DNA of 64,000 bases from Pseudobdellovibrionaceae bacterium (GTDB lineage Bacteria; Bdellovibrionota; Bdellovibrionia; Bdellovibrionales; UBA1609). Below the pieces are notes generated by a model. That model searched no databases. It was not told the origin of the DNA and saw only the letters and a list, made by a program, of their open reading frames with translations. Numbering within the stretch: position 1 is the stretch's first letter; each line of letters opens with the position of its first letter. This document shows, piece by piece, positions 37,275 to 64,000 of the stretch. The stretch covers positions 2,634 to 66,633 of the forward strand of contig JAYSTF010000074.1 in the NCBI GenBank assembly GCA_043720065.1, given 5' to 3'. The position numbers and the translations under genes were made by a program.

Positions 37275-37280
37275 AGTCTT

Positions 37281-37472
37281 GTACTCCAATGAAGGACGTA
37301 AACTGAAATAGGGGGGAACAGTGGTGCTAAGACCAAAGGACTTACGCTTAGACCCACCGCCGAAATAATGCGGTGGAACAGGTCGGATAAGTGTTTCTTT
37401 TGTTCAATTCCTTGAAACAGGAGGACTGCACGATGCCTTACCCGCCGCTATGCACGGCGGGTTTTTTATTTT
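37281..37472 (+). ncRNA. Candidate ~190-nt structured RNA (orphan leader or sRNA) ending in an intrinsic terminator
   Basis: Bounded by the promoter-like element and the terminator. Contains mutually exclusive helices: GUGGUGCUAAG...CUUAGACCCACC versus CCACCGC-CGAAAUAAU-GCGGUGG (37354..37376). 5' CUCC / AAGGA can pair with 3' UCCUU / GGAG and mask a GGAGG. No plus-strand gene follows. Confidence 0.3.
37440..37472 (+). terminator. Rho-independent terminator
   Basis: Stem acccgccg (37440..37447) / cggcgggt (37455..37462), 7-nt loop, followed by TTTTTTATTTT. Confidence 0.7.
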
Positions 37473-38326: not shown

Positions 38327-38340
38327 AATTAGGAATCTAT

Positions 38341-40059: not shown

Positions 40060-40139
40060 CCAATAACTGTAACGAAAGGTTCGATTCACCGCAACCCTAA
40101 GCCCTCGCAAATTACTTAACTCAGGGACTTTTACTCGCC

Positions 40140-42347: not shown

Positions 42348-42429
42348 TGAGCGAAGCTTTGCCTCCGCGGAAAAAACGGAAACTGCGGCAACAAAAATAC
42401 ATAAACCCAGACTTATGTGTCGGCGAATA

Positions 42430-47072: not shown

Positions 47073-47959
47073 GGTCGCGCTCCTTTTTCAGCATGAATCC
47101 GGTCAACGACTTTACGGCTTAACTCTTGGAGCTGTTCGGCATCATTAAGAGAAACTTTTGCCGATGCCGTTGCTCGCTTGAATTCGCGAAGCAGCGAAGA
47201 CAGATCAGGACCAACTGATTTGAAAAGGGACTTATGCCGTTTTTTAAGATCCTTCAAAACCGTGCTGATAGGCCACTCATCGGCCGGCACGACAAACTCT
47301 CTAGTTAAAAAATAGCGAAATGAATCGTCGAGCTGCTTCACATATTCTTCCGGCTTATCTGGATGCTGCCGTGTCAGCTGACGCAAAGTTTTATGAAACT
47401 CCGCGTAAGGCGTAAGAATTGTTCCTTTGGCCGCAAGCCGCGCCAGCAAGGCCTTTCGTGCCTTTTGCTTTTTCACACGCCGATAAATGAGCGTCGCAAT
47501 CAACAAAACCACCACACCAAGCGAGATCCAAACCCACATCGGCCAAAATAGAAAAATCGGGCCGATTGCTGGATAAGGCTCCGTTTTCTCGCCCTGTTTT
47601 TTTTCAATCACGGAGCCGAGCGTCCACTCTAAATTTCGCGCTCTGACTGTAGTTGTCCCATCAGTAATATCAATCCACTCTGGCTTATGTTGCCCGGGCT
47701 TGTATCCCGCCACGATCCACTCGCCGTCATTCACTGTGCTTTTTTTCGCTTGAATAATGGCAAGACTAAATTCTTGTTCAGGAACTGGAAACTTTAGCTG
47801 AGGTGACGCTTTCCAATCAGGAACCGTTGGACCGGCACATTTTAAGAGAAGCTTCGTGCCGACCGTGGCTTCAGCTGGAGGACTACCTTGTTCAGTGGTG
47901 AGCTTACATTCCCACTCGACAGGTGGCGGGGTGGGCGCTGGCGCGATAGGTTCACTCAT
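47069..47959 (-). CDS. Hypothetical single-pass membrane protein at the operon position usually held by DUF4381
   Basis: 296 aa with a central TM helix (IFLFWPMWVWISLGVVVLLIATLIY). It overlaps both neighbours by 4 nt. Confidence 0.5.
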   Translation of the reverse strand: MSEPIAPAPTPPPVEWECKLTTEQGSPPAEATVGTKLLLKCAGPTVPDWKASPQLKFPVPEQEFSLAIIQAKKSTVNDGEWIVAGYKPGQHKPEWIDITDGTTTVRARNLEWTLGSVIEKKQGEKTEPYPAIGPIFLFWPMWVWISLGVVVLLIATLIYRRVKKQKARKALLARLAAKGTILTPYAEFHKTLRQLTRQHPDKPEEYVKQLDDSFRYFLTREFVVPADEWPISTVLKDLKKRHKSLFKSVGPDLSSLLREFKRATASAKVSLNDAEQLQELSRKVVDRIHAEKGARP

Positions 47960-48831
47960 CGCCGCGTTCTCCGGTGGAAAAATTGAACCAGAGGTTGAAC
48001 GATGTCCGCATCGGTTAAAATATCAATACGTTCCACTTGAGCGCGGCGTAGCTCCTGGTCGCGCAATTCTTTCCGGTCGCGCATGAGTTTTTCATATTCA
48101 CGCCGAACGGCACTGCTGCCTGAGTCGAGGGAAATGATTTCTCCCGTCTCCGGATCCTCGATATCAATAAGACCGAGATTGGGGAGGCGAACCTCACTTG
48201 GATCGGCTACAACAACAGCTATAGTTTCATGCTTCTTGCCAACCATGCGAAGGGCGTGGTCGAAGCCGCTATCCAAGAAGTCGCTAAAAATAAAAACATT
48301 TGAGCGCTTTTTTAAAACGCCTTGAAGGAATTCAATGGCCGACGCGATCTTCGTGCCGCGGGATTTTGGTTTGAAATAATAAAGATCGCGCAAAATACGG
48401 TGAATTTGCCCGCGCCCTTTTTTTGGCGGTACGTAAAGCTCGACTTGATCCGAGAAAAGCAAAAGCCCGACCGGATCTTTGTTTTTCACGGCAGAAAAGC
48501 TTAGAAGTGCTGCCAAATGGGTGATCACTTCACCTTTAAAATATGTCTTCGTTCCAAAGTCTTCGGAGCCGCTTACATCAACGGCAAGCATAAGCGTGTT
48601 TTCCCGCTCCTCGTCGTACTTCTTGATGTAGGTCTTTCCAGTTCTTGCGGTGAGCGACCACGCAATGGAGCGCACGTCGTCGCCAGGCACGTACTCCCGA
48701 AATTCAGAAAAAGTCATCCCCTGACCCTTAAAGGCCGAGTGATATTCTCCGGCGAAGATGTTGTTCACCATGCGCCGAGTGCTGATCTCCAGCAGTTTTA
48801 CTTTTTTGAGAATCTCTGGGGGAAGCGACAT
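47956..48831 (-). CDS. DUF58 domain-containing protein
   Basis: 291 aa. GEYHSAFKGQGMTFSEFREYVPGDDVRSIAW is the DUF58 signature. It follows a MoxR ATPase. Confidence 0.85.
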   Translation of the reverse strand: MSLPPEILKKVKLLEISTRRMVNNIFAGEYHSAFKGQGMTFSEFREYVPGDDVRSIAWSLTARTGKTYIKKYDEERENTLMLAVDVSGSEDFGTKTYFKGEVITHLAALLSFSAVKNKDPVGLLLFSDQVELYVPPKKGRGQIHRILRDLYYFKPKSRGTKIASAIEFLQGVLKKRSNVFIFSDFLDSGFDHALRMVGKKHETIAVVVADPSEVRLPNLGLIDIEDPETGEIISLDSGSSAVRREYEKLMRDRKELRDQELRRAQVERIDILTDADIVQPLVQFFHRRTRR

Positions 48832-48836
48832 GACGT

Positions 48837-49826
48837 TTAAGGCACCTCAATATGATTGAGAATGTCCTTGATCACCTCATCGGCCGTAATGTTTTCCGCT
48901 TCCGCTTCATAGGTCAGGATCAAGCGATGGCGAAGAACGTTGTAGGCCACGGCCTTCACGTCCTCTGCCGTGACATAGCCACGCGAGCGAATAAACGCAT
49001 GCGCTTTCGCAGCTCTCGTAAGACTTATCGTGGCACGCGGACTGCCGCCCACCTTAATCAATGTTTGAAGATTCGCCATGCCGTACTTTTCTGGCTGTCT
49101 CGTCGTCATCACGATTTCAACAATGTAGGCTTTGATTTTCTCGTCGACGTACACTTGGTCGCTGCGCTCTTTTGCTGTCATCAATTCCTCGCGACTAATC
49201 ACCGTCTGCATTTCAGGAATCGAATCAGAGGACATCTTGTTCAATATTTGAAGCTCTTCGTCTTTTTTCGGATAAGTGATAAGGAGCTTAAACATGAAGC
49301 GATCCATCTGGGCTTCGGGAAGTGGATAAGTTCCCTCTTGCTCAAGCGGGTTTTGCGTCGCCAGCACCAAGAACGGGCGATCCAGCGGATAAGTCGTATC
49401 ACCAATAGTGACTTGTCTTTCCGCCATGCACTCTAAGAGCGCGCTCTGCACTTTCGCCGGTGCCCGGTTGATCTCGTCCGCCAAAACGATGTTCGTAAAG
49501 ATCGGGCCCTTTCGCGGCACGAACTCCCCCGTTTTCGGATTAAAAATCATAGTTCCGATCAAATCCGTTGGTAGTAAGTCCGGAGTAAACTGAATGCGCT
49601 GGAAGTTTAACGAAATAGCTTTCGCCATTGTTGAAATCGTTAGCGACTTCGCCAGTCCCGGCACACCCTCAATCAACACGTGACCACCCGTGAGCATGCC
49701 CATTAAAATGCCTTCCAGCATTTCTCTTTGGCCGACTACCACTTTGTTTACTTCTAAAAAAGCCCGTTCGACGAATTGACTGTCTTTTTTGATGGCCTCA
49801 TTTAAAGCCAAGATATCCACTTGCAC
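48837..49826 (-). CDS. moxR: MoxR-family AAA+ ATPase
   Basis: 329 aa. Walker A-equivalent GHVLIEGVPGLAKS, Walker B LADEINRAPAKVQSALLE, and a MoxR-type C-terminal lid. Confidence 0.9.
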   Translation of the reverse strand: MQVDILALNEAIKKDSQFVERAFLEVNKVVVGQREMLEGILMGMLTGGHVLIEGVPGLAKSLTISTMAKAISLNFQRIQFTPDLLPTDLIGTMIFNPKTGEFVPRKGPIFTNIVLADEINRAPAKVQSALLECMAERQVTIGDTTYPLDRPFLVLATQNPLEQEGTYPLPEAQMDRFMFKLLITYPKKDEELQILNKMSSDSIPEMQTVISREELMTAKERSDQVYVDEKIKAYIVEIVMTTRQPEKYGMANLQTLIKVGGSPRATISLTRAAKAHAFIRSRGYVTAEDVKAVAYNVLRHRLILTYEAEAENITADEVIKDILNHIEVP

Positions 49827-49891
49827 GGTTGTAAACTCCTATGCTGAAAAACCTGGTGAGAATCTGAAGTCCCCCATTATCACTCAAGTGG

Positions 49892-50782
49892 ATGGAGCTT
49901 GTCACTTCACCCAGACGAGCTGTAGATTTAAAGTCGATGAAAGCACAGTTGTTACGGTCTAGCCTTTTGCTCGGATGCCTGGTGATTCTTGTTATTGGCT
50001 TTGGCCAAAAGTTTGGGCATCGCGATGCATTTGTTTTGTCCGTCACGTTAGCGCTCAGCATCATAGGTATTTTTCTATGGTATGGGGATCTTCGTCTAGT
50101 GCCTTTGCTGCAGGTTGAGGAGCTTGAAGGTCATGATCCCTGGGGTCTAAGAAAAAAACTTGCCGCCTTAAGTGAAAAAGCCCGGATCGATATGCCCCGG
50201 GTTTTTGTAATTCCTAGCGAGACGCCACAAGCTCTGGCTGTTGGCCGCTCGCAACGTAGCGGAAAAATATTTCTGACGCTTGGACTGCTTAAATTATTAA
50301 CTCCAGAAGAGCTCAATTCGGTTTTAGCGTACAATTTATTTACCATTAAGAATCGCTCTACTTTGTCGTTCACCATTGGAAGCGCAATGGCAGACGCGGT
50401 TCTAAGTATTGGCGGCGGCATTGATTGGCTATTTAACTGGCTGCTCGGATCTGGCCACCATTCCGCGCGGCGGCGAGTGCAAATTGCGACCTGGCTAGTG
50501 GCCCCGGTCGCCGCGGTTTTAGTTCGTTTATCCGTTGGCAAGATCGCATATTTGCAAGCGGATCGCGATACGGCCCGGCTTCTCGGCGAGGGACGCACCC
50601 TGGCAAGCGTGCTGTGGAAACTTCAATCTTATGCACTGACTCAGGCTTTTCCTATCTCTCCTGCCACATCTCATTTCTTTATGGTCAACCCCTTGACGAC
50701 AAACCGTTGGGGTCGATACTTTCACGCCCATCCGCAAATTCGAGAGCGGATTCAAAATCTGATCGGGCATTATCCGATCTAA
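49892..50782 (+). CDS. HtpX/M48-family peptidase homolog lacking the zinc-binding motif (predicted inactive)
   Basis: 296 aa (alternative start ATG 49937, MKAQLLRSS..). M48 topology and blocks are conserved: PRVFVIPSETPQALAVGRS, FLTLGLLKLLTPEELNSVLA, ADRDTARL. The HExxH position reads YNLFT (50330..50344), and the downstream Glu ligand region reads AYLQAD. Confidence 0.6.
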   Translation: MELVTSPRRAVDLKSMKAQLLRSSLLLGCLVILVIGFGQKFGHRDAFVLSVTLALSIIGIFLWYGDLRLVPLLQVEELEGHDPWGLRKKLAALSEKARIDMPRVFVIPSETPQALAVGRSQRSGKIFLTLGLLKLLTPEELNSVLAYNLFTIKNRSTLSFTIGSAMADAVLSIGGGIDWLFNWLLGSGHHSARRRVQIATWLVAPVAAVLVRLSVGKIAYLQADRDTARLLGEGRTLASVLWKLQSYALTQAFPISPATSHFFMVNPLTTNRWGRYFHAHPQIRERIQNLIGHYPI

Positions 50783-50800
50783 CGACAGTAGCGAGGCGAT

Positions 50801-51055
50801 GTGGCAAACGCTCCCTTAACCCCAAGTTTTTCTACCCTTGTTTTATCGATTGGTTCGTCCGCCGCTATGGCGATGGGCCTAGCGCCAAATCCAACAACAG
50901 AAAAAGCGGAAAAGGATTTGGATATGGCAAGATTTCATATCGACTTGTTGGTTCTCCTTCAGGAGAAGACCAAAAACAATTTGGCATCGGAAGAGCAAAA
51001 CTTCCTCGAGTCGGTCATCAGTGATTTGCAGATGAAATTCGTCCAGCTCAAATAG
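50801..51055 (+). CDS. DUF1844 domain-containing protein
   Basis: 84 aa. FSTLVLSIGSSAAMAMGL ... DLDMARFHIDLLVLLQEKTKNNL..EE..L matches the DUF1844 pattern. Confidence 0.65.
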   Translation: MANAPLTPSFSTLVLSIGSSAAMAMGLAPNPTTEKAEKDLDMARFHIDLLVLLQEKTKNNLASEEQNFLESVISDLQMKFVQLK

Positions 51056-51084
51056 GTCTGTGGGCGTAGGCTATAGGAGAAAAT

Positions 51085-52548
51085 ATGAAACTGTTAATCT
51101 CATCCTTTTTATTATTAGGCCTAGCGATTGGTAGCGCGGTTGAACTCGCAAAGCGCGATATTTTGCCAGCCGCCACTGCCCAAGCCACAGCGACGTTACC
51201 GAAACTCAAAGAGGGCGAAGCGCTGCCGCACGATTTATTTGTAAAGCTGAATAAATTAATTAATCCAACGGTCGTGAATATATCTACCAGTTATTTGCCA
51301 CAACAGCTTAAGCGCGATCCAAGACGGCGCGGGCAACAAGATCCTTTCCAAGACTTTTTCGAACAATTCATGGGTCCAATGGGACCAATGCAACAAAAAC
51401 CTGCGGAGTCTCTTGGAACTGGCTTTATCATCCGCGAAGACGGCTTGATCATTACAAACAATCACGTAATCGATAAAGCCGATGCGGTAAAAGTTCAGAT
51501 TAACGAAAAAGAAGAACCGCTGGTCGCCAAGGTCATCGGGCGCGACGCTAAAACGGATATCGCCCTTTTAAAGATTGAAGCGAAAAAGCCTTTGCCGGTC
51601 GCAAGGCTTGGAAGCAGCGCGGATCTACAAGTCGGCGAATGGGTGGCCGCGTTCGGCAACCCTTACGGTCACGGCCACACGATGACTAAAGGAATTGTCT
51701 CTGCCATTAATCGTGAAATAGATGAGATCAATTTGAATCCCTTTTTGCAGACCGACGCGAGCATTAACCCTGGTAACTCAGGGGGGCCGCTTGTGAACAC
51801 TCAAGGACTCGTCATTGGAGTCAATACGGCGATCGACCCGAGAGCCCAAGGGATTGGCTTTGCGATTCCTATCGATTTCGTAAAAAATATTTTGGCCCAG
51901 CTTGAAAAAGAAGGCACCGTTCGCCGTGGCTTCATCGGAATTCAAATGGGAGAGCTCGACGAACAAGTCGCGGCTTACTTAAAATTAAAGAGCACGGAAG
52001 GTGCGTTTGTGATTCAAGTCGTGCCGGGCTCACCTGCGGACCGCGCTGGCTTTAAAGAGTACGATGTCATCGTCGAAATGGAAGGCCAAAAAATTAAATC
52101 TTGGCGCGAAGTGCAGAAAATTATTGCGCGCGCCACCATCGGCCGCGAGCTTTCGGCAAAGGTATTGCGCAATGGAAAGTCCATTGCGCTGAATATCAAA
52201 GTCGGCGACCAACCTGACGAATTGCGGCTTTCCGAACAACCTCGCAAACAATATGAAGGCCAAAAAGCGCCGTTTAATCTCGGGTTCCGCATTGCCGACT
52301 ACACTCCCCAACTTGGCCAAGAGTTTGGCATCCCACCACTACGCCAAGCGGGCCCGATCGTACTTGAAGTGGATCAGGGCAGTATTGCTATGATGAGCGG
52401 CCTTGAGCCCGGCGATGTGATTTTAGATGTGAATCTTGTTCGCGTTTTGCGGGCTAAGGATTTCCTAAAAGTTCTTAAAAAAGACGGCAGCGTTTTGCGG
52501 GTATTAAAGCGCAACGGAGTTGTGCTGCTGCAGCTAAAGCCGCGGTAA
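51085..52548 (+). CDS. htrA: Periplasmic serine endoprotease, DegP/HtrA (Do) family, two PDZ domains
   Basis: 487 aa. Signal peptide. Catalytic triad contexts TNNHVI, TDIALLKI and GNSGGPL. Two PDZ-like regions follow. Confidence 0.9.
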   Translation: MKLLISSFLLLGLAIGSAVELAKRDILPAATAQATATLPKLKEGEALPHDLFVKLNKLINPTVVNISTSYLPQQLKRDPRRRGQQDPFQDFFEQFMGPMGPMQQKPAESLGTGFIIREDGLIITNNHVIDKADAVKVQINEKEEPLVAKVIGRDAKTDIALLKIEAKKPLPVARLGSSADLQVGEWVAAFGNPYGHGHTMTKGIVSAINREIDEINLNPFLQTDASINPGNSGGPLVNTQGLVIGVNTAIDPRAQGIGFAIPIDFVKNILAQLEKEGTVRRGFIGIQMGELDEQVAAYLKLKSTEGAFVIQVVPGSPADRAGFKEYDVIVEMEGQKIKSWREVQKIIARATIGRELSAKVLRNGKSIALNIKVGDQPDELRLSEQPRKQYEGQKAPFNLGFRIADYTPQLGQEFGIPPLRQAGPIVLEVDQGSIAMMSGLEPGDVILDVNLVRVLRAKDFLKVLKKDGSVLRVLKRNGVVLLQLKPR

Positions 52549-52672
52549 TTTAGCGGCCCGACCCGGGCGGCTTTCGAACAAGGTCAACATTGAGGTTGCC
52601 GATTTCGCTGCCGCTGCGGAAGTGACTCGCAGAAAAATTCTCCGCGCGGAGAAAGTTCTGCGCCATAATTGT

Positions 52673-52756
52673 ACCCTCGGCGCCGATAGGGCGAACGCAT
52701 CTAATTATTAAATAAATTCAAACGCTTAGGGCATAGGCCTTGTTTTTCCCTGGGAA
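52673..52756. repeat. Left arm of an 84-bp imperfect inverted repeat
   Basis: By manual alignment, 70 of 84 positions match the reverse complement of 54208..54291. A perfect 18-nt core, agggcgaacgcatctaat, lies at 52688..52705. Confidence 0.8.
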
Positions 52757-52835
52757 CTGAACCTACAGGTCGACTTACTAATCCTCGAGGGCACAGGAGA
52801 GCCGCTGTAAAATAACATTTATTTATATAATAATA

Positions 52836-52985
52836 TCATCTAGTGCTGCGTCTTTCACCATCGAGCGCATTCGCTTGGCAATTTTTTGTAGCTTTCGCGG
52901 TGGCGGCTGCGGATTTCGATTCAGCTGCTTCGCTTGCCTTTGAGCCTTGGAAGAGAAAAATTGAGAGTACAAAAAGAGGTTTCAT
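52836..52985 (-). CDS. Candidate small secreted peptide (49 aa)
   Basis: MKPLFVLSIFLFQGSKASEAAESKSAAATAKATKNCQANALDGERRSTR. The N-terminus is signal-like, and GAGGTG lies 3-4 nt upstream of the ATG. It is divergent from the HNH gene. Supported only by ORF/SD logic. Confidence 0.25.
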   Translation of the reverse strand: MKPLFVLSIFLFQGSKASEAAESKSAAATAKATKNCQANALDGERRSTR

Positions 52986-53246
52986 GTGCACCTCGTAATT
53001 CGCCCCTCCTCCCTCTGAATTGGCCTGCACAAATATTTTTTGTTGACGGGCTTTCGCGCCCCCTAGTCTTGTTATTACTCAGTTTATTTTTGAATTTGCT
53101 TTTGAAAGCCATTCTACGGCAAAGGAACCCGACATACTTGCTTTTAAACTCAACGGCGAGCTCCGCAGTGTCACGCTCGGCGGCCTCGGGAAATTCATTT
53201 TTAAAACATGTAGTAGATTCTTTTAAATTCGTGAAGGAGGAATTTA

Positions 53247-54134
53247 ATGTCACAGCCACTTAGTGAAAACCAGCTCGAGTTACATGAGCGCGCCATTCAA
53301 TTAAGTTTTGAATATCGCCGTCTCGAGGGCGAACTGATTTTAATCTTAGACGAAATTGATCAGCAGAAGTTTTTTAAACGATTAGGATATGCAAGTCTAT
53401 TTACTTACGCCGTTGGCGCCTTGGGACTAAGTGAAGCCAATGCTTACGCTTTTATTTCTGTAGCTCGTAAGAGTCGTGAAATCCCGGAGTTAAAGATCGC
53501 TGTGATTGAACAAAAAATCACAGTTGCTAAGGCTAGTCGGATTGTAGCGGCAATCAATAAAGAGAACGCGCCCGAATTGGTTAAATTCGCACAGACGCAC
53601 ACCACCCGCCAGACTGAAATTGAAGTGGCGCGCCTTCAGCCAAGCGCTGCCGTTTCTGATAAAATTAGGTTTAAGGGTGAAGATCTTGTTCAGCTTGAGT
53701 GCGGAATCACCAAAGGCACCCATGAAAAACTTGAACGGGTAAAGGCACTATTAGCGGCGAAGGGTCAATTTAGTCTGGACAACGTTTTATCAGAAGTTCT
53801 GGACGATTACTTGACACGACATGATCCAGTGAGGAAGGCCGAGCGTGCACTTGCGAAGAGCCCGAAAACTAAAAAGCTCTGCGCGCTCAGAGTTCAAACA
53901 AGTTCGAAACGAGCACCACTTCCCGCGCGCACCAAACATCAGGTCCATGCGCGAGATCAAGGGCGTTGTACTCATATAAATGCAAATGGCGAGCGCTGTG
54001 CTAATGATAGATGGATTGAACTTCATCATGTCCGACCTGTAAGCATAGGGGGCAGCAATGAGGTGAAAAATCTAACGACGCTTTGTGGTTTTCATCATGA
54101 CTTGGTTCACCAATTGAGTTTTTCGCTGCCGTGA
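53247..54134 (+). CDS. HNH endonuclease with an N-terminal DUF222-like helical domain
   Basis: 295 aa. The RBS-like GAAGGAGG precedes the ATG. The C-terminus RCTHINANGERCANDRWIELHHVRPVSIGGSNEVKNLTTLCGFHHDLVH is an HNH (His-Me finger) motif. The N-terminal ~130 aa resemble DUF222. Confidence 0.8.
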   Translation: MSQPLSENQLELHERAIQLSFEYRRLEGELILILDEIDQQKFFKRLGYASLFTYAVGALGLSEANAYAFISVARKSREIPELKIAVIEQKITVAKASRIVAAINKENAPELVKFAQTHTTRQTEIEVARLQPSAAVSDKIRFKGEDLVQLECGITKGTHEKLERVKALLAAKGQFSLDNVLSEVLDDYLTRHDPVRKAERALAKSPKTKKLCALRVQTSSKRAPLPARTKHQVHARDQGRCTHINANGERCANDRWIELHHVRPVSIGGSNEVKNLTTLCGFHHDLVHQLSFSLP

Positions 54135-54207
54135 GAGATGCACATTAGCTGGCGGCAACGGAACACAACGTGCGGGACCTTGCCCCGCTTGTACCTGCCC
54201 GCGGGCG

Positions 54208-54291
54208 TCCCTAGGGCTAAACAAGACATATCCCCTATACGTTTGAACCTATTTAATTATTAGATGCGTTCGCCCTTTCGGCGCAGAGGGT
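54208..54291. repeat. Right arm of the 84-bp imperfect inverted repeat
   Basis: Reverse complement of 52673..52756 with 14 mismatches. The perfect core attagatgcgttcgccct lies at 54259..54276. Confidence 0.8.
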
Positions 54292-54451
54292 GGACGCGCG
54301 TCACATGCCATCCATATTCACCCTTTAATACGCTTCAAACTGAGAATAAGTGCGGGCCCGACCGCTTAGCCTTAAGTCTAGGGCGTAAGTAGCCGTAAAG
54401 ATTATAACAGCACTAGAACGCACCTTTGGCATCAGCTTAGGAGTTGTAGCC

Positions 54452-54757
54452 ATGAAGATCACCGAAGTGAAAGTCTTCCTTGTGAACGAAGACCGCCTTA
54501 AAGCCTACATCACCATAACGCTCGATGACTGTTTCGTTGTTCGTGATTTGAAAGTCATTCGTGGCAATGAAGGTTTGTTTGTGGCAATGCCGTCTAAGAA
54601 ACGCAAAGACGGACAGTTCAAAGACATTGCTCACCCGCTCAATCAGGAAACGCGAGCTGAGATAGAAAAAGCTGTCTTTGACGCCTATGAAGCTGAGGTG
54701 CGGGCCATGGAAAGTTCGCTGACCGATATCAAGCGCGACGATCACGACGGTCCGTAA
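54452..54757 (+). CDS. spoVG: Septation protein SpoVG
   Basis: 101 aa. MKITEVKVFLVNEDRLKAYITITLDDCFVVRDLKVIRGNEGLFVAMPSKK is near-canonical SpoVG. GGAG lies upstream of the ATG. Confidence 0.9.
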   Translation: MKITEVKVFLVNEDRLKAYITITLDDCFVVRDLKVIRGNEGLFVAMPSKKRKDGQFKDIAHPLNQETRAEIEKAVFDAYEAEVRAMESSLTDIKRDDHDGP

Positions 54758-54846
54758 GTGCCTTTTCGGGGCAAATCAGTCCTGAAGCGCTTTAAATAAA
54801 ATACGCGATACTTGAAACCAGCGGCAGAATATCTATTATACGTAAT

Positions 54847-56073
54847 ATGAAATTTAAATTCCGCCCCCAGGATTGGACCCCCGTCGATATTGAAAAAGCA
54901 AAAGGCTCGCTCACTCAAGCGCAGCGCCAACCGGAGGCCGGTTTTTGGACGCAAGCTTTGAGCCCTGAGATGTGGGAAAAAGTGCGCAATCGTGCTGCGA
55001 CGCTTAAAGGCCAAGCTTCCCGCTTTGTGGTTTGTGGTGTGGGTGGCAGCAGTTTGGGCGCCAAAGCTCTTACGAGCCTCACTCACGATCAAGGCATTTT
55101 TTATTTAGATCACTTGGATCCAGATAGCGTGGAATTTTTTAAAACCCGATTGGGAAATTTAAAAGACGTTCACTGGATTTGGATATCCAAAAGCGGCGGG
55201 ACTCTTGAAACTCTAACTAATTTAAATTTAGCCGCTGGATGGTGCAAGGATCAAGGTATCGAAATCGCGAAGAAAAGTACGGTGATTTGCGAACCGCGCT
55301 CAAGTGCGCTCGCTAACTGGGCAAAAGAAAATGATATTCCCACTCTTGATATTCTAAGCAACGTGAGCGGTCGTTTTTCCGTTTTGACGGCAGCAGGCCT
55401 TCTGCCCGCGGCTTTGTCAGGATTAAATTTAGCTGAGATTGAAAAAGGCGTCCGCTCTGTCACCGCCACGAATGCGGAAGTCGCTCAGCTTATCGCAGCC
55501 ACTTTAAAAAGCTGGCAGCGGGGCGAATGGGTCACGGCGATTTGGACTTACTGCGATCAACTGCGACCGTTCACTTATTGGCTACAACAACTCTGGGCGG
55601 AATCTTTAGGTAAAGCCGTAACGCGAGATGGGTCACCTGCCCCGCGCACGAGCTTTCCCGTTCCATGTGTTGGCAGCCTCGATCAGCACTCTCTCCTTCA
55701 GCAATTTATCGAAGGTCACAAATCTCATTGGCTATGGATTTTGCGTGTCGATACTCATGAGAAATCGGGTGAGAAGGTTCGTGAGGTCGTAACTCAAGAA
55801 ACACCATGGCTTAAGAGCCGCTCTCTTGGCGAAGTATTTGCCGCGCAAGCCGAAGGCACCGCCCAAGCCTTGAGCGAAGCTAAAGTCAGCTTGCTTGAGT
55901 GGCATTGGCCAAAACTCGATGCCTTCCATTTAGGGCAAGCCTTGTTCATGATGGAGCTTATGGTGGCGGGACTCGGCGAATCATTGGGCATAAACACGTT
56001 TAATCAACCCGGCGTTGAGCGCGGCAAAATAATTACTCATGACCTGTTAAATCCCACAGGCGGCCTACGATAA
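54847..56073 (+). CDS. pgi: Glucose-6-phosphate isomerase (short bacterial type)
   Basis: 408 aa. Motifs CGVGGSSLGAKAL and ISKSGGTLETL of the PGI/SIS family are present. Confidence 0.85.
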   Translation: MKFKFRPQDWTPVDIEKAKGSLTQAQRQPEAGFWTQALSPEMWEKVRNRAATLKGQASRFVVCGVGGSSLGAKALTSLTHDQGIFYLDHLDPDSVEFFKTRLGNLKDVHWIWISKSGGTLETLTNLNLAAGWCKDQGIEIAKKSTVICEPRSSALANWAKENDIPTLDILSNVSGRFSVLTAAGLLPAALSGLNLAEIEKGVRSVTATNAEVAQLIAATLKSWQRGEWVTAIWTYCDQLRPFTYWLQQLWAESLGKAVTRDGSPAPRTSFPVPCVGSLDQHSLLQQFIEGHKSHWLWILRVDTHEKSGEKVREVVTQETPWLKSRSLGEVFAAQAEGTAQALSEAKVSLLEWHWPKLDAFHLGQALFMMELMVAGLGESLGINTFNQPGVERGKIITHDLLNPTGGLR

Positions 56074-56076
56074 ATT

Positions 56077-58062
56077 ATGGACAAGCGAGATCTTAAGAAC
56101 AGTGTAATTTTATTCTGCGCCTCGCTCGCCCTTTATCTTTGGCACTTAGCCCCGGGTCTTACGGCAGAAGACTCTGGCAATTTTTTAATGGGCGCGAAAT
56201 TTGCCGGCACGATTCATCCTCCCGGGTATCCGCTTTATGTTCTACTGGCTTCTTTGTTTGGTAGAATTCCCTTCAGTGATTTTGCTTTTAATGTCAATTT
56301 CATGAGCGCGTTTTTTGCGTCTGGCGCCCTCGTTGCTTTTTATTTAGGCCAAAGAGTTTGGCTAAAATGCCAACCGTTTATTGCAGGGTGCTCAACTGTT
56401 GCCTTGGCGCTGCACTTTTTATTTTGGGCGGAAGCCGAGATTGCGGAAGTTTATAGCTTAAATGCATTTCTGTTTTGCTCATTCATTTTGTTTGTCGGTT
56501 TATTCACGGCGCGAAAAGAAAAACGATTTCTTTTTGCCTCAGTCTTTATTTTTGGCTTAGGTCTGTCGAATCACTATCCGTTGATGATTTTGGCGGGAGC
56601 ACCACTGATTGTATTTGCTCCTGGGTACTTAAAAGAAGTTCGAACCCAGTTTTTGAAAGTCATAGGTTTTGGCACCCTTGGTCTTTTGCCTTATTTACTC
56701 TTAGTAATAAACGCGACCCTTCGAAATCCTGAATACAACTTCGGCAAACTCTCCTCTCTCAACATGCTCGTGACTCATATCTTAAGGAGTCAGTATAGCG
56801 GCGTCGACCAGGCCGGTGGCACTTTTGTGGATAAGTTTCACCTCGTGGTCGAAACCGCTAAGACTTTAACCTTTGGCTTTGGCGCTTACGGCCCTGCATT
56901 CCTGCTTGGACTGTATGTTTTAGCGAAAACGCGGGATAAGAGCACAACATGGATTCCGGCTTCGCTCTTTTCAAGTTGGATATTGCTGATTATTATCCTC
57001 GGCTTTAAGGCTGACGAAAGACACTTTGCGATTTTTGAAGCTTACATGGTTCCTGCGGTCGTGCTTGCGGGATTCATTGTGACTCTTGGGCTAAAAAACA
57101 TCGAGCTAGTCGTGGCTAAAAAATTCTCACCCAATTCTTTGGGCTTTGCGCTTGCTCTAGCTATTGCTGTCAGTCTTTCCTACCCCATTGGAACAGCGAG
57201 GGCCAATCACCGCGACGATACCGTTGTTGCCAACTGGGCAAAGTCGCTTTTGACATCTATGGAACCTAACTCCTCCGTAATCCTTTGTGGCACCGACGTG
57301 TTTGCGGTTTATTACACGCACTTCGTTGAAGGCATCAGACCCGACCTTAAGCTCTATGATCAGTTCTCGGTTTTCACGAAAGAGAATCTCTATGGCGATC
57401 AGCTTTTATTTCAAAGACCAGATCCTCTCGAAGCACGAAAACGCTTTGAATTAGCGCTTGCGAAGGACGAAAGCCGTGCGGTTGTCTATCTCTGCTCTGA
57501 TTCTCCGAAAGACATTGGTTTAAAGGTAGACCCACTTCCCTATGGATTTAGGGTGGGAAGTGGCGGGGCAACTCAATCTTTAAGAGAAGAAGATGAAAAT
57601 CTTTTGCGCCTTGCCGCAAGCCCGTCAGCAAAATCAGAGTATTGGTTAAAGCTTAGACGCCAAGTTATTTTTTCGCAGTTTATAAATTATTATGGCGTCA
57701 AGGGGGACGAAGCGTCTCTCGCTAAAGTTCTTGTCCATTTTAAAAGCTCAGATCTCATTGACGACAAAGACTTATCTTTCAAAGTCGCCAACAATCTAGC
57801 GTTAAATAAACGTTATGTAGAAAGTATTGAATTATTTAAACTTCTTGATCATAAAAAATATCTATTTCAAGCCGAGGACTTAAGCAATATCTGTGGCATG
57901 ATGATTCAAGTAAAGAACCTAGATGAAGCCCTCACGTTTTGCGACAGAGGGTTACGCGAAGACAAGGGCTGCCACAAAGGCCTTCGCCAAAACTCTGCCT
58001 TTATCTACCAGGCAAAAGGTGACTTACAGAAGAGCCAAAGTCTTCTCACACAATGTCTATGA
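56077..58062 (+). CDS. DUF2723 (TMEM260-like, GT-C fold) membrane protein with a C-terminal TPR-like region
   Basis: 661 aa. The first-loop motif TAEDSGNFLMGAKFAGTIHPPGYPLY is the DUF2723 signature. About 10 or more TM helices, then a soluble helical domain. Confidence 0.75.
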   Translation: MDKRDLKNSVILFCASLALYLWHLAPGLTAEDSGNFLMGAKFAGTIHPPGYPLYVLLASLFGRIPFSDFAFNVNFMSAFFASGALVAFYLGQRVWLKCQPFIAGCSTVALALHFLFWAEAEIAEVYSLNAFLFCSFILFVGLFTARKEKRFLFASVFIFGLGLSNHYPLMILAGAPLIVFAPGYLKEVRTQFLKVIGFGTLGLLPYLLLVINATLRNPEYNFGKLSSLNMLVTHILRSQYSGVDQAGGTFVDKFHLVVETAKTLTFGFGAYGPAFLLGLYVLAKTRDKSTTWIPASLFSSWILLIIILGFKADERHFAIFEAYMVPAVVLAGFIVTLGLKNIELVVAKKFSPNSLGFALALAIAVSLSYPIGTARANHRDDTVVANWAKSLLTSMEPNSSVILCGTDVFAVYYTHFVEGIRPDLKLYDQFSVFTKENLYGDQLLFQRPDPLEARKRFELALAKDESRAVVYLCSDSPKDIGLKVDPLPYGFRVGSGGATQSLREEDENLLRLAASPSAKSEYWLKLRRQVIFSQFINYYGVKGDEASLAKVLVHFKSSDLIDDKDLSFKVANNLALNKRYVESIELFKLLDHKKYLFQAEDLSNICGMMIQVKNLDEALTFCDRGLREDKGCHKGLRQNSAFIYQAKGDLQKSQSLLTQCL

Positions 58063-58111
58063 GCCATATGGGCAACCTAACCTAGGAAGCGCCGACCCGA
58101 CAGAGGAACAT

Positions 58112-60115
58112 TTACAGCCGGCAATTTGAGAATCTTTTCTGGATGAAGATATCATCTGCCGGAATGCCCGCTTGCTTGTCCAAAGTCACAATCGTTTTTA
58201 GAACGCTGTTTTCACAGCTGGGAAATTTCTCCAGGGCTTGACGCAGGAACTGTCCAACTTGGGCATACCTTAGAGTCCTGACCTCCACCGACGGATTCTG
58301 GGAATTAATTAAGTTAATTCGGTTTTGAGCAAACAAGTTTGCCACTTGGGATTGCTCTGGTTTATTTAGGAAAGGGAGGCCAACGACTAGTTTTTGAAGC
58401 ATTTCATCAGCCCCAGCGAAGTCAGAAGAGTTAAATTCCTCAGCCGCGTACTGAAGCAGGCAAAAAGAATTTTGTTTTGCGAACTCGTGCTGTATTTTTG
58501 CTTGGGCCAGCGTTGAACAAAGGTAGGTGTAAATCGAGCCTGCGTGGTAATTCCAGATGCCGTCGTAGGGTCGCTTAAGTTCTATATCGAGAAACTCTTT
58601 TACCGCATTATTAAGCTTTTCGCTGTTTGGCTCAGCTGGCGCTGAGGAAAGAACGGTGTAAAGGCCACGCTTCGTCGCGGTAAGTCCATTAACCGAGTTG
58701 CCATCGATGAAAAACAATGGCGACGAAAAATAAACTGGAGCATTGGCTTTAAAGAAGCCTTTTGATTTGCTGGCTTTTGTCTCAGGCCGATCATTGACAG
58801 GATCAAGCATGCGGTTCTTAAAGAGTAACCCAAACTGCGAAAATAATTTTATATCCGGCCTAATTCTCTCGACGTAGTGAGCATACCCGATCGGGCCCGC
58901 ATCAGTTTCCGCTGAAACAAAGAGTTTAGCGTTTTCAGGAAGATTCTTCAGCACGACTTCCGCATAACGAAGTGCAAAGTCCTCCGAGCGGCGATTGCTC
59001 TTAGTGAAATTTAAGCAAAGAACCAAAACCGCGAGTGAGAGTGGCACAACCCACGCCGGAACCTTTGGCAGACGCTTGTTGATTTCTAAGGTGCCAGCAC
59101 CAATTGCGAGAGCGAGGAACGCATACGGAATGAGATGATACACTAAATAAGCTTCCACGTTTAATGGCTCAAAATCATTCACCTCGAAGAATTTTAAAAT
59201 CAAACTGCTCGAGAGAATACCCCAGATAAAAACAAATTTTAATTTTCCAGGAAACGATTTGGCCGCGGCATAAAATCCCACGAGTAAAACCGCGGCTCCG
59301 ATATATGTAAATTCGCTTAAAACACGAAAAAGAAACTGGCCAAAAAACTGTGCGGAATCCCAAAGTGTTGCCGTACCACTAGCTTCAAGGCCCATATATT
59401 CTTTACGGATCACATAATTCACAAACTCACTAAAGTTCGCGATTGCGCCAGAGAAAATCATCTCCCCCTCTCGCGACGCTCGCCAAACCATGATCACATA
59501 GGGGACGAGTCCAAGGGCGAAAAAACCAAGGCCGGCCGTCCAGAATCGAAAAAAAAGATTCCGATTGGGCCAAAGTAGAACTAATAACATTGGAAAATTG
59601 AGAAGGATAAGCGGCCAATGATTCGCGAGACTTAGTCCAAAGCAAAGAGCAAAAGTCGCAACTAATTTTTTACTTACACCTTCAGAGAGCTCCAAAGCCA
59701 GATAAAGTAACGCTAAAAAGAAAAACGCATTGAGTGCGTAAACTTCAGCGACTACTGCTTGCGACCAGAACGTAAGTGAAAAGCCGTAAACCAATGCGGC
59801 ACCGACCGCGACGTAGCGATGGTTTAGGATTTTTAAGCCACAAAGGTAAACCATGACGCAACTAAGGCTTGCGAATAGCGCGCTAATTAAATGAATCCGG
59901 TAAGCCACCGTACTGAAAGGCAGATATGAAAAAAGTTTGCCCAGAAGCGTATAGAGCGGATATCCAGGAGGATGTGAAACCCCCCAGTAATAACTCGTCA
60001 TGATGAATTCGCCGGAATCCTCGAGGGTCACAGCATGAGGGGCCGTCAGCGCGTAAATCACGAAAAGAAGAATAAAAAGAGCGCCTGAATCCCGGCGCAT
60101 AAATCCCGACTGCAT
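58112..60115 (-). CDS. DUF2723 (TMEM260-like, GT-C fold) membrane protein, paralog of 56077..58062
   Basis: 667 aa. Same signature (TLEDSGEFIMTSYYWGVSHPPGYPLY) and same architecture. It is convergent with its paralog across a 49-nt gap. Confidence 0.75.
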   Translation of the reverse strand: MQSGFMRRDSGALFILLFVIYALTAPHAVTLEDSGEFIMTSYYWGVSHPPGYPLYTLLGKLFSYLPFSTVAYRIHLISALFASLSCVMVYLCGLKILNHRYVAVGAALVYGFSLTFWSQAVVAEVYALNAFFFLALLYLALELSEGVSKKLVATFALCFGLSLANHWPLILLNFPMLLVLLWPNRNLFFRFWTAGLGFFALGLVPYVIMVWRASREGEMIFSGAIANFSEFVNYVIRKEYMGLEASGTATLWDSAQFFGQFLFRVLSEFTYIGAAVLLVGFYAAAKSFPGKLKFVFIWGILSSSLILKFFEVNDFEPLNVEAYLVYHLIPYAFLALAIGAGTLEINKRLPKVPAWVVPLSLAVLVLCLNFTKSNRRSEDFALRYAEVVLKNLPENAKLFVSAETDAGPIGYAHYVERIRPDIKLFSQFGLLFKNRMLDPVNDRPETKASKSKGFFKANAPVYFSSPLFFIDGNSVNGLTATKRGLYTVLSSAPAEPNSEKLNNAVKEFLDIELKRPYDGIWNYHAGSIYTYLCSTLAQAKIQHEFAKQNSFCLLQYAAEEFNSSDFAGADEMLQKLVVGLPFLNKPEQSQVANLFAQNRINLINSQNPSVEVRTLRYAQVGQFLRQALEKFPSCENSVLKTIVTLDKQAGIPADDIFIQKRFSNCRL

Positions 60116-60162: not shown

Positions 60163-62016
60163 CTACGCGCTGGCCTTTTTTGTTCGCAGCTCAAAGGAAC
60201 TGAGCATGAGCTTGCGAATTTCGTCCACATTGCCAACGAAGTCGGCGCCGTCACGTTCGATCGCTTCCCGGGGCATGCCATAGACGACGCAATCTTCTTC
60301 GCTTTGAGCGATGCAGAAAACGCCTTCTTTTCTTAAAAAACGTAAGCCCAGGGCGCCATCTCTTCCCATTCCTGTAAGGAGAATAGCCATCATTGGGCAC
60401 GACACACCAATAACTGAATTGAACATAAAATCAACGCTCGGGCGGTGCCCGTTTACGGCGTGCGAATTCGAATGAGTAACGAAAAGCTTGCCGCCCTTTT
60501 GGTCGACCCCAATGTGATGATCGCTGTAGGCCATATAAATATGGCCGGGCAGCATAGGTGACCCGACTTCCATTGAGCCGATTCTCAGGTGGCCAAGGCT
60601 AGCTAGCCGTTCCGCCAGCGGCCGCGTGAATTTTGGAGCCATGTGCTGGGTTATCATAATCGGAGGAGTGCTCGGAGGCATGTTTGCGAGGAGTTTTACC
60701 AGGGCTTGCGGGCCGCCCGTGCTAGCGCCGATTAGGACAAGTTCAGGCGCGCGGGAGGGAAAACCACCTCCGACCCGAGTTGAACCGTGCGTTGGCGCCT
60801 GATGACTGTGAATCAGTTCAAGAATGACTTCCTTAAAAATTTTTGAATCGGTTCGAAGATGCTCTTTTTCCATATAGTGTTGAGCCCCATGTTCGAGGAG
60901 TCGAACCACGGCGTCCGCGTCGGAAGCATGCGTATCACTCAAAATGACGATTGGAGTTTTCAGACCCTCCTTTCGTTCGCTAATTAACCATTCATCGCCA
61001 CGAATCCCCGGCATGTGAAGGTCGAGGGTAATTAAATCTACTTCGTTAAAGTTTAAATAGCTTGTGGCTTCGGATGCAGACTTGACAGTCACCGATTCAA
61101 AACCCATCTCAGCAAATAATTGGGTTAGGAATTTACGCGTCGCCGATGAGTCATCAATGGATAAAATTCGATACTTGGTTGAGCTACGCGCCGACGGTTC
61201 CCGCTCCTTAGTCTGTTTGCAAAATACGGAATGGCCCCGCTGAACGAGACCGAAGTCCGCACCGTTCACCGCTTCACTATGGCCAAGGAATAAATGTCCG
61301 TCGTGGCGCACCGTCGCTAAAAGATTCTTCACCACACGCGCAACGTCAGCACTGGAAAAATAAATTAAGACGTTACGGCATATACAAACGTGAAACGGCC
61401 CTTCCGGCTGCTGCTTCATCGTGCGTAAATCGTGTACTCGGAATATGCAGCGATTACGAATCTCTTTACAAATCGTAAAGAAGCCCACCGATTTGCCGCT
61501 ACCTATTAGCATATGAGCGCGATATCGGTTCAAATGAAAATTGATCTGCTTTTCAGCATAAACAGCTTTTGTGGCTATCGCAATCGATACGGGGTCGATG
61601 TCTGTTCCTAGGATGCGGTAATCAAACTTTGGATGCACCCGGCGAAACTCTTCTAACATTAGAGCGAAGCTATAAACTTCTTCTCCAGTAGAGCAAGCGG
61701 AACACCAGACTTTAAACGTCTCGTTTTTATCCAATGCTTCTAATAGAAGCTCCTGGAAAACGACGAAGTGCGGATTTTCGCGAAACCAGGATGTCGTATG
61801 AATGGTTAAAGAGGAAATCAGGTGGGCGAATTCATCCGAATGATTTTCGACATGTTGCAGGTAACTCGCCAAACTAGTGAGCTTTAGGTGCGACATGCGA
61901 CGCTCGACGTTGCCGATGAGCGAGTCTTGGCGCATGTCGCCGCTTTGGGCGCAACCGGTCAGCTCCTCCGCGAGTTTAAAAAGAATCTGCTTGTCACTCT
62001 CAGTTAACATCGGCAT
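60163..62016 (-). CDS. Fusion protein: CheR methyltransferase + receiver (REC) + CheB methylesterase
   Basis: 617 aa. Residues ~1-265 are CheR (WCSACSTGEEVYSFA, GTDIDPVSI, CICRNVLIYF). Residues ~282-385 are REC (ILSIDDSS, DLITLDLHMPG with the acceptor Asp). Residues ~425-600 are CheB, with catalytic contexts IGASTGGPQAL (Ser), TQHMAPKFT (His) and LTGMGRDGA (Asp). Confidence 0.85.
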   Translation of the reverse strand: MPMLTESDKQILFKLAEELTGCAQSGDMRQDSLIGNVERRMSHLKLTSLASYLQHVENHSDEFAHLISSLTIHTTSWFRENPHFVVFQELLLEALDKNETFKVWCSACSTGEEVYSFALMLEEFRRVHPKFDYRILGTDIDPVSIAIATKAVYAEKQINFHLNRYRAHMLIGSGKSVGFFTICKEIRNRCIFRVHDLRTMKQQPEGPFHVCICRNVLIYFSSADVARVVKNLLATVRHDGHLFLGHSEAVNGADFGLVQRGHSVFCKQTKEREPSARSSTKYRILSIDDSSATRKFLTQLFAEMGFESVTVKSASEATSYLNFNEVDLITLDLHMPGIRGDEWLISERKEGLKTPIVILSDTHASDADAVVRLLEHGAQHYMEKEHLRTDSKIFKEVILELIHSHQAPTHGSTRVGGGFPSRAPELVLIGASTGGPQALVKLLANMPPSTPPIMITQHMAPKFTRPLAERLASLGHLRIGSMEVGSPMLPGHIYMAYSDHHIGVDQKGGKLFVTHSNSHAVNGHRPSVDFMFNSVIGVSCPMMAILLTGMGRDGALGLRFLRKEGVFCIAQSEEDCVVYGMPREAIERDGADFVGNVDEIRKLMLSSFELRTKKASA

Positions 62017-62036
62017 CCCTTAAAAAAAGCATGGCT

Positions 62037-63716
62037 TTAGCCGCGATCGTCCACCTTACGAAATGAACCGTCGTCCGCTGATATTCCGTTGGCGGCGTCT
62101 AATTTTTGTGAGGCTGAACTTTGATGCCTTTGGGACAAACGGTTAACTAAACTAAGTACCGCTTCGTTGCCGCTGCTCTCGACGTCAGTCGTTGTGCCAT
62201 TTGCCGAAGATGGCGCAATAGACGCCGCATTGCTAGTTTCGTGCTTTACAAATCGGCGGACGCCTTCAGTGACCTCGCGGATCTTCCCACTCAAATGACG
62301 GACGCGATCGGAAATCTTAAGAATCTGCTCAGACGCCTTTTTGTTTTCCATCGCAGTTTCGTCCATCTGGTCCATGGCTCTCGCGGTTTGCTCAACCCCG
62401 CCCTCTTGTTCGACGGAGGCTTCACCCACTTGATTTACTTTTTCTGAGATTACGACGATCTGCTTAGCGATTTCATTAAAGCGCTTTAGGGCGTCGGCGG
62501 TAACACCTTTGCCATCGCGAACTCGCTCTTGAACCGCTTCAACGATCTGGACGACCCGCTTTTGACTGTCATTAAGAAGCTGGTCAATTTCTTTTGAGGC
62601 ACTACCACTCATTTGCGCGAGCTTTCCCACTTCTTCGGCCACCACGGCAAATCCACGGCCATACTGACCGGCTCTTGCCGCCTCGATCGAAGCGTTAAAA
62701 GATAAAAGTTGAGTTTTAAATACGATGTCATTGATCATTTGAGTTTTGCCACGGATCGATTGGATAATTTCCTCGAAGCTCTGCAGTTGTGCATTGGATT
62801 GCTCAATAGCAAGCATCGACTTTTCCATGCGGGTCATGATCTGGCTGCCATCATGAGTCTTGTCGTTCACGACGGAGGTTAAACTTTGAACTTCACGCAC
62901 ATGATTGGCGGTTTGAGATAACATGCTGCGAATTTCAGCAATCGAGGCGACGGTCTCTTGCACGGCGGCGGATTGCTCGCTGGAAGCGGCCGACAGCGCT
63001 TCAGACGCAGACCTAAGTCCTTCAGAAGTTTGGTCGTTTTGCTCGGAAAAATTAGAAAGGCTTTTAACAAAATTCGAAAGCTCTTTGTCCACCTTTTGAG
63101 TCGTAAACCACATGGAGGCCGTTGGCAGAATTAAGGTCGCTGCTGCCACGGGAATAATCAATAGGATCAACGCCTGAAGCGCCTTTCCCAGCTGGACTTC
63201 ATGATAATTGCCAATTGTCGTGCGCAATTCATCGAGTTTCGTACGCAACTCACCAAGTCCGTTACGCAGACCTTCCTGCTTTACGTTAGCAATCTCTGTC
63301 TTGCCTTCAACAAAGGCGAGGGCGACTTCGCGTCCTACCACATCGACCGCTTCGAACTTGCCCTTAATTTCAGCAATTTCCTTGGCCCAAGGTTTCGCCT
63401 CATTCTCCGTCGCCATAACATCAATGACTGAGAGAAAGGTGGCTTTGGCTTTACGAATCGATTCCAAGTGCTGAAGACCTGATTCGCCCTTGCTGGCTCC
63501 AATTAGCTCAAAGGCTGAGCTCGTATGCTCAAGGGAGAGGCGTAGATCCATAAAGTGAACGCGGTTTTTGTTTAGCTCGGCGTTTGTCGCCTGGAAACTA
63601 CCCTCCGCTTTGAAAATCGCGAAAAGTGAGAGACCACTTAAGATAACGACCGCAACTATCACGATGCCGAGTGCTCGCAATATCCGACCTTGAATAGTGT
63701 GGTTTCTTTTAAACAT
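62037..63716 (-). CDS. Methyl-accepting chemotaxis protein
   Basis: 559 aa. Two TM helices flank a ~170-aa periplasmic domain. Conserved signalling hairpin [27 protein letters not shown]. It lies 20 nt upstream of the CheR-REC-CheB gene. Confidence 0.85.
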
Positions 63717-63831: not shown

Positions 63832-64000
63832 ATGATCCGAACGATTCTTCTGCTCGGCTTTGGTCTAGCGCAGGTGGTCCAGGCGCAGGAACAAAAGACG
63901 ACGTTTTATGGCTACATCAATAGTTACTTTGAAAAGTCCGCCGACCATGCGGTCTTGAAAGCGTCTGGAGTATCGGGCACACCTGCAACTCGAGGTGAAT
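63832..64000 (+). CDS. Hypothetical exported (possibly outer-membrane) protein, 5' part only
   Basis: AAGGAG lies 8 nt upstream of ATG 63832. MIRTILLLGFGLAQVVQAQEQKTTFYGYINSYFEK gives a signal peptide plus a beta-strand-like start. The ORF runs off the window. Confidence 0.4.
   Translation, partial: MIRTILLLGFGLAQVVQAQEQKTTFYGYINSYFEKSADHAVLKASGVSGTPATRGE

Follow-up and report, generated by a model that had tools for sequence, protein, structure and literature searches.

A methyltransferase-receiver-methylesterase fusion in a conserved chemosensory gene cluster of a Pseudobdellovibrionaceae bacterium

Gene and domain organization of the fusion

The window analyzed here is a 64,000-nt stretch of contig JAYSTF010000074.1 from a Pseudobdellovibrionaceae bacterium; coordinates are window positions unless a second contig, L001, is named. 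Close to its end, on the minus strand, lies a gene that joins the two opposing adaptation enzymes of bacterial chemotaxis, CheR (a methyltransferase) and CheB (a methylesterase), in a single polypeptide with a receiver (REC) domain between them. The open reading frame (ORF) comprises 617 codons without interruption at 60163..62016 (-), with the stop codon at 60163-60165. The ORF reaches as far upstream as an ATG at 62016, but translation probably starts at the second one, at 62010, since a Shine-Dalgarno-like AAGGG lies 6 nt before it, homologues begin with MLSD or MISD in agreement with this position, and the identical database entry (P0001) is 615 aa long. The cheR-REC-cheB gene would then span 60163..62010 (-) and encode 615 aa. 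A first-pass annotation, made from the sequence alone, had placed a gene for a methyl-accepting chemotaxis protein (MCP) 20 nt upstream and a DUF2723 gene 47 nt downstream on the same strand. Both were confirmed by ORF positions and Pfam matches: the MCP ORF occupies 62037..63716 (-) and encodes 559 aa with the C-terminus FRKVDDRG, and the TMEM260-like/DUF2723 gene (58112..60115 (-)) encodes 667 aa.

The same annotation had described an entire CheR ahead of a full REC-CheB, with catalytic and phospho-acceptor residues intact, a description borne out by Pfam domains, alignments and predicted structure. With residues numbered along the 617-aa ORF and all segments on the minus strand, the CheR module (61213..62010, aa 3-268) comprises an N-terminal helical domain and an S-adenosylmethionine (SAM)-dependent methyltransferase domain, as delimited by PF01739 and by alignment to the Salmonella structures 1AF7/1BC5. 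PF01739 matched aa 74-252 with 146.2 bits (cut-off 27), while PF03705 (CheR_N) gave a weak match of 17.2 bits, under its cut-off of 27. There follow a CheR-REC linker (61171..61212, aa 269-282), predicted to be disordered and variable in length and sequence, the REC domain (60817..61170, aa 283-400; PF00072 at aa 284-385, 63 bits), a REC-CheB linker (60745..60816, aa 401-424) and the CheB methylesterase domain (60193..60744, aa 425-608; PF01339 at aa 427-602, 176.9 bits). The PF01739, PF00072 and PF01339 matches all exceed their thresholds by a wide margin. NCBIfam CheB models were colinear with aa 281-608 (profile positions 3-353 of 357), the match to full-length CheB continuing through the second linker. 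No NCBIfam model is dedicated to the fusion, and Pfam detected no PAS or kinase domain in the protein.

The characteristic motifs STGEE, LDLHMPG, GASTGG, TQHM and GMGRDG were located at residues 109, 331, 430, 456 and 549, respectively. According to a HMMER alignment with Salmonella CheB (1A2O), D288/D289 correspond to D10/D11, the phospho-acceptor D332 to D56, and the esterase triad S432, H458 and D553 to S164, H190 and D286; the REC domain also carries S360 and K384. Alignment to Salmonella CheR (1AF7/1BC5) showed the FFRE, STGEE, D-I-D, CRNV-IYF and GHSE motifs to be kept, and the CheR beta-subdomain has no gap relative to Salmonella CheR and a 1-residue gap relative to P. aeruginosa CheR1. 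In an alignment of 59 homologues with 39-65% identity, R79, E113, D139, N215, Y219, K384, S432, H458 and D553 were present in all 59, and the CheR residues S109, G111, D141 and R214 were likewise invariant. The phospho-acceptor D332 was found in 57 of the 59, and the REC residues D288/D289/D332/S360/K384 were conserved in 54-59. In the same alignment the CheR-REC linker ranged from 15 to 72 aa with 13% pairwise identity, and the REC-CheB linker from 23 to 32 aa.

An AlphaFold2 model built on the 59-homologue alignment had a mean predicted local distance difference test (pLDDT) score of 89 and a predicted template-modelling (pTM) score of 0.57, with pLDDT values <50 confined to residues 271-279 and the extreme C-terminus. 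Foldseek superposed the REC-CheB half on full-length CheB (1a2o, 6ymz) with a target TM score of 0.83 over ~340 columns and a root-mean-square deviation of 4.4-5.0 Å, and the CheR half on 1bc5/1af7 with a TM score of 0.84 over ~272 columns. Four N-terminal helices are seen in the model; since the CheR half superposes as a whole, the N-terminal helical domain appears to be structurally present. The predicted packing of REC against CheB resembles the autoinhibited state of canonical CheB (1A2O). In the sequence features and modelled structure examined, the fusion agrees with both CheR and CheB, save for the sub-threshold CheR_N score.

Distribution of the family and relation to known chemotaxis proteins

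The first-pass annotation had called for a survey of this domain order across genomes; the survey was run and the architecture is not rare. The best 120 matches of a word-indexed search and the best 150 representatives at 50% identity of an exhaustive search (down to E=5e-88) were taken, and the 263 retrieved proteins were classified with hidden Markov models made from three sub-alignments. Among the best 120 matches, all but P0055 and P0057, which gave no REC match, carry the three domains, with lengths of 576-672 aa. CheR-REC-CheB accounted for 229 of the 263 retrieved homologues, CheR-CheB without REC for 22, CheR-REC-REC-CheB for 7, REC-CheR-REC-CheB for 2 and shortened forms for 3; the double-receiver variants reach up to 1052 aa. 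At the 50% identity level, at least 117 clusters have the CheR-REC-CheB architecture, the majority from metagenome-assembled genomes (MAGs) of Bdellovibrionota. In the databases the proteins go by 'CheB', 'response regulator' or 'CheB/methylase', in MAGs assigned to Bdellovibrionales, Oligoflexia and 'Deltaproteobacteria'. Full-length tblastn matches beyond Bdellovibrionota (Acetobacter, Ferrovibrio, Azospirillum, Roseospirillum, Hydrogenophaga and others) were rejected as fusions: on ORF mapping, their cheR and cheB turned out to be neighbouring but distinct genes, in one order or the other.

The REC-less fusions, 467-550 aa long, belong to Bacteriovoracaceae and some Bdellovibrionales (loci L014, L016-L018 and L021; proteins including P0057, P0134 and P0156). 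They resemble the protein described here in placing CheR first and in adjoining an mcp gene, in their case within cheA-cheW-mcp clusters, but they lack the receiver and therefore any phosphorylation control inside the polypeptide. The literature that could be searched, including work on Geobacter, MiST 4.0, Bdellovibrionota phylogenomics and comparative-genomics papers, yielded no description of the CheR-REC-CheB order, although Wuichet & Zhulin 2010 may mention it. The fusion belongs to a large and old family that is widespread in Bdellovibrio-like bacteria and unstudied; it is an ordinary member of that family and an uncharacterized architectural variant of a known system.

Compared with the canonical CheR and CheB of E. 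coli and Salmonella (1AF7/1BC5, 1A2O), the fusion has the same folds, the same catalytic and SAM-binding residues and the same REC-linker-esterase layout, and its domain order is that of the enteric operon, in which cheR precedes cheB. The canonical enzymes are separate proteins, whereas here they form one polypeptide bridged by a disordered linker of 15-72 aa across the family. Two further departures from the enteric system are a receptor without the NWETF pentapeptide and a CheA without a recognizable P2 domain. CheB-CheR fusions (KEGG K13924, 'cheBR') have CheB followed by CheR and usually then PAS and histidine-kinase modules; they normally lack an N-terminal receiver and are not known to be encoded in che clusters. 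They likewise hold a methylesterase and a methyltransferase in one protein, but in the opposite order: here CheR comes first, ahead of a full REC-CheB, in a che cluster beside an MCP. The distinction from this class drawn in the first-pass annotation stands on the Pfam domain order of the present protein and on the definition of the class given above.

Other natural fusions of Che proteins are CheV (CheW-REC) and CheA-CheY. CheR also tolerates added modules, as in CheR-TPR and spirochaete CheW-CheR (PMC3447774, PMC7666581). In all four cases pathway partners are likewise fused so as to fix stoichiometry or localization, but those fusions join cooperating components, whereas CheR-REC-CheB joins two antagonistic enzymes.

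The chemosensory cluster and its receptor

The first-pass annotation had found no cheA, cheW or cheY nearby, which is true inside the window only. No further che paralogue occurs in window positions 1..60000, and what remains of the window consists of genes for housekeeping functions, for lytic transglycosylases and the like, together with a Bat/MoxR operon. The apparent lack is a window-edge artefact, because only 284 nt of sequence upstream of the mcp start belong to the window. The 21-kb contig L001 carries the exact protein, is identical to the window at 9,885 of 9,885 overlapping positions (window position = 72011 minus L001 coordinate) and continues upstream of mcp, where cheX lies 1.8 kb, cheY 2.7 kb, cheA 3.1 kb and cheW 4.9 kb from the mcp start. 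The far end of cheW lies 5.3 kb from that start, and the complete Che set on L001 fits within 9 kb. By Pfam, CheY is a single-domain protein of 130 aa, CheA (589 aa) has Hpt, dimerization, HATPase and CheW-like domains, and CheW comprises 157 aa. CheX (L001 5628-6488, virtual window ~65523-66383) has 286 aa; its CheX domain occupies aa 171-253, and the N-terminal part gives a weak STAS-like match (20.9 bits, cut-off 22.6). Its orthologues measure 279-300 aa in every related cluster reaching that region. The response regulators of the cluster are limited to the single-domain CheY and the receiver of the fusion; the cluster also includes a CheX phosphatase, and neither a pil or GGDEF gene nor a response regulator with an output domain was found in it. 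With MCP, CheA, CheW, CheY, CheR and CheB encoded together, the locus is a complete chemosensory cluster.

The arrangement, with cheW and cheA diverging from cheY, cheX, mcp and the fusion, is kept in eight further loci (L002, L003, L005, L008, L012, L014, L046 and L050); L014 keeps this order though its fusion is REC-less. Within the clade of at least 47% identity, an MCP gene lies directly upstream of the fusion in every locus reaching far enough upstream, and cheX directly adjoins mcp in most related loci. Here mcp and the fusion are split from the other che genes by two opposite-strand genes (L001 6512-8179; 407 and 141 aa, with signal peptides and no Pfam matches), the first of which, encoding the 407-aa protein, starts inside the window at 63832..64000 (+). 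The pair was found only here and in L005 and is therefore a lineage-specific insertion.

The cognate transmembrane MCP (62037..63716 (-), 559 aa) matched PF00015 with 114 bits and has two transmembrane segments, a periplasmic domain of ~140 aa without a Pfam match, and no Pfam match to HAMP. The hairpin tip falls at aa ~351-353, at GRGFAVVA. Gaps relative to Tsr (36 heptads, 36H) and TM1143 (44H), together with arms of ~140 aa around the tip, suggest a length class of ~40H. Three matches to the methylation consensus were detected, at aa 244-251, 250-257 and 433-440. Candidate methylation sites of the N-terminal arm lie at 62934..62987 (-) (aa 244-261), where Q253/E254 aligns with Tsr E303/E304, and those of the C-terminal arm at 62325..62420 (-) (aa 433-464), where E436/Q437 stands in a consensus motif and E463/Q464 aligns with Tsr E492/E493. 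E and Q swap among orthologues at the candidate pairs, as expected if these sites are modified by CheR and CheB.

The receptor has no xWxxF (NWETF-type) pentapeptide at its C-terminus and no aromatic-x-x-aromatic pentapeptide in its last 30 residues. The first-pass annotation was thus literally correct that an NWETF-like tether is missing, but such absence is the norm, as the pentapeptide, whose consensus has been described, occurs in ~10% of chemoreceptors and ~90% are without it (PMC7390727), and the tail has a conserved motif of its own. This motif, ISADDGSFR (62058..62084 (-)), follows the family consensus [IL][ST]ADD.[ST]F[RK], or more narrowly ISADD(P/G)SF(R/K). Across 12 MCP orthologues its mean pairwise identity was 76%, compared with 9.5-13% for the flanking tail segments and 69% for the signalling domain. 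It recurs in the L046 receptor, which adjoins a 47%-identical fusion, and is absent from other MCPs of the same loci. Like the NWETF consensus, the motif is acidic with a Phe near its end, although it lacks Trp and does not stand at the extreme C-terminus. It may be a candidate tether for the fused enzyme, alternative to NWETF.

Elsewhere in the window, two convergent DUF2723/TMEM260-like membrane proteins of the GT-C type, 29-30% identical, are encoded at 56077-58062 (+) (661 aa) and 58112-60115 (-) (667 aa); neither paralogue is kept beside the fusion gene in relatives. Beyond cheW, L001 419-2899 encodes a 379-aa O-methyltransferase that has a winged-helix/dimerization N-domain and a 302-aa protein of the ThiF family, alongside two very short called ORFs of 38 and 43 aa; these may form a small peptide-modification cluster. 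The Bat/MoxR-type operon at 42430-49826 (-) comprises a MoxR AAA ATPase, a DUF58 protein, an uncharacterized 296-aa protein, BatA-VWA, VWA, TPR and BatD proteins. Two adjacent SLT-domain lytic transglycosylase genes lie at 38341-42347 (-), one product having three LysM repeats and the other TPR. At 32430-35961 (+), a gene for a DUF1595/DUF1592/DUF1588 (PSCyt/PSD) protein adjoins one for a DUF1552 (HXXSHH) protein. A 196-aa ORF at 11891-12481 (-), set among housekeeping genes, has an IS200-like Y1 transposase domain (29 bits), and a 295-aa protein encoded at 53247-54134 (+), upstream of spoVG, bears a C-terminal HNH endonuclease motif (21.8 bits, cut-off 21.4).

Proposed role of the fused enzyme and alternatives

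We consider it likely that the fusion alone serves as adaptation enzyme in a complete and conventional pathway (MCP, CheA, CheW, CheY and CheX) in which cheR and cheB have been joined as CheR-flexible linker-REC-CheB. This reading draws on the observed domain identities, intact residues, conservation across the family and gene-cluster context. The CheR module would constitutively methylate Glx pairs of the adjacent receptor, and perhaps of other receptors, using SAM. Phosphorylated CheA would phosphorylate D332 of the internal receiver, which would relieve the occlusion of the S432-H458-D553 esterase as in canonical CheB, and the freed esterase would strip methyl groups to give the usual negative feedback. 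The covalent fusion would leave the chemistry unchanged while locking CheR:CheB at 1:1 and delivering both activities to the same place, where the conserved motif ending the variable receptor tail may dock the enzyme.

What the fusion gains is most plausibly that the antagonists are coupled in both stoichiometry and space. According to Løvdok et al. 2009 (PMC2716512), robustness against noise in expression depends on how CheR and CheB are balanced, cheR_cheB are translationally coupled in E. coli, and selection favours such pairings of opposing enzymes across genomes. The logic is the same here, co-varying opposing enzymes buffering the output, but the coupling of E. coli cheR_cheB is partial and translational (PMC2716512), whereas that of a fusion is covalent and absolute. 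It is conceivable, and proposed tentatively, that a lineage-specific tether, formed by the motif that ends the disordered receptor tail, replaces NWETF, such that one docking event brings both activities to the array, and that the receiver in the middle might also toggle the polypeptide between methylation and demethylation.

Several points weigh against a single adaptation enzyme of a conventional pathway. Enzymatic activity, phosphotransfer from CheA, the stoichiometric rationale and the tether are inferred. The CheA of L001 has no recognizable P2 docking domain, and the route of REC phosphorylation is an assumption. The model, with its pTM of 0.57, leaves the placement of CheR relative to REC-CheB undefined. 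Altogether 22 of the 263 relatives have no REC; among the more distant members (~40% identity; L047, L048 and L049), L048 and L049 are orphans without che genes within 10 kb, and the L047 fusion sits in another cluster type, cheA-cheW-fusion. Orphans, the L047 cluster and REC-less relatives together imply that one rationale may not fit all members.

It is also possible, though rather improbable, that the complete Che pathway steers something other than flagellar rotation, such as type IV pili, gliding or prey encounter in a predator. Bdellovibrionota employ several motility modes, CheX has a putative additional N-terminal STAS-like domain, the receptor has no HAMP match and, by length, would have roughly 40 heptads, and the 64-kb window contains no flagellar genes. 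Against such an output, the cluster is without an output-domain response regulator, pil or GGDEF gene, and CheY with CheX is a typical motor-control pair.

The fusion could instead act as a reciprocal push-pull switch, in which phosphorylation of the receiver activates CheB and at the same time inhibits CheR by steric or allosteric means, and toggling between the two modes avoids a futile cycle. The receiver is placed between the opposing enzymes, its phospho-acceptor is retained in 57/59 homologues, and the double-receiver variants suggest elaborated regulation; the bifunctional opposing enzymes PFK2/FBPase2 and GlnE are reciprocally regulated. The disordered CheR-REC linker, which measures 15-72 aa and is poorly conserved at 13% identity, points to a loose tether and not to a defined regulatory interface, the 22 relatives that join CheR straight to CheB indicate that a fusion is viable without the receiver, and the model (pTM 0.57) shows no confident CheR-REC contact. 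We regard this switch as unlikely.

The first-pass annotation had suggested a self-contained receptor-adaptation module with, possibly, a non-motility output; such a module would work without CheA, CheW and CheY and might be tied to the DUF2723 glycosyltransferase. This reading could appeal to the absence of other che genes inside the window, to the orphan state of a few distant family members, and to the DUF2723 gene on the same strand 47 nt on, across a gap without a predicted terminator. That gap, however, contains a promoter-like site, and none of the related loci examined has the DUF2723 gene (it is missing downstream in L003, L005, L008, L046 and L050, among others), so the gene is probably unrelated to the fusion; a functional link to DUF2723/TMEM260 was rejected because this neighbour is kept in no related locus. 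Furthermore, the identical contig has cheX, cheY, cheA and cheW at 1.8-5.3 kb upstream of mcp, the whole cluster is kept in the eight further loci with the fusion as its last gene (cheW-cheA | cheY-cheX-mcp-fusion), and, as components of an output type, it encodes a single-domain CheY and the phosphatase CheX. An independent module of this kind is very improbable.

A frameshift or assembly chimera joining cheR and cheB, or a catalytically dead half, deserves practically no credence: many genomes have cheR and cheB side by side as distinct genes, and the alphaproteobacterial and other distant matches proved to be such pairs, but neither a frameshift nor a lost catalytic residue was found on checking, a second assembly is identical, the same continuous architecture recurs in 229/263 homologues from independent assemblies at 32-65% identity with invariant catalytic residues, and the linker is in frame and varies by whole codons.

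In chemotaxis, precise adaptation hinges on the CheR/CheB balance, and both theory and E. coli experiments indicate that selection makes the two enzymes co-vary (PMC2716512). If CheR-REC-CheB is the adaptation enzyme of a conventional pathway, its covalent 1:1 lock would be the limiting case of this principle, and a natural fusion of antagonists would offer a ready-made test of the robustness of adaptation to expression noise. Since annotation pipelines name such proteins 'CheB' or 'response regulator', censuses of cheR in Bdellovibrionota are expected to undercount. The tail motif may reveal a second type of tether for adaptation enzymes, which bears on how the ~90% of receptors without NWETF recruit them.

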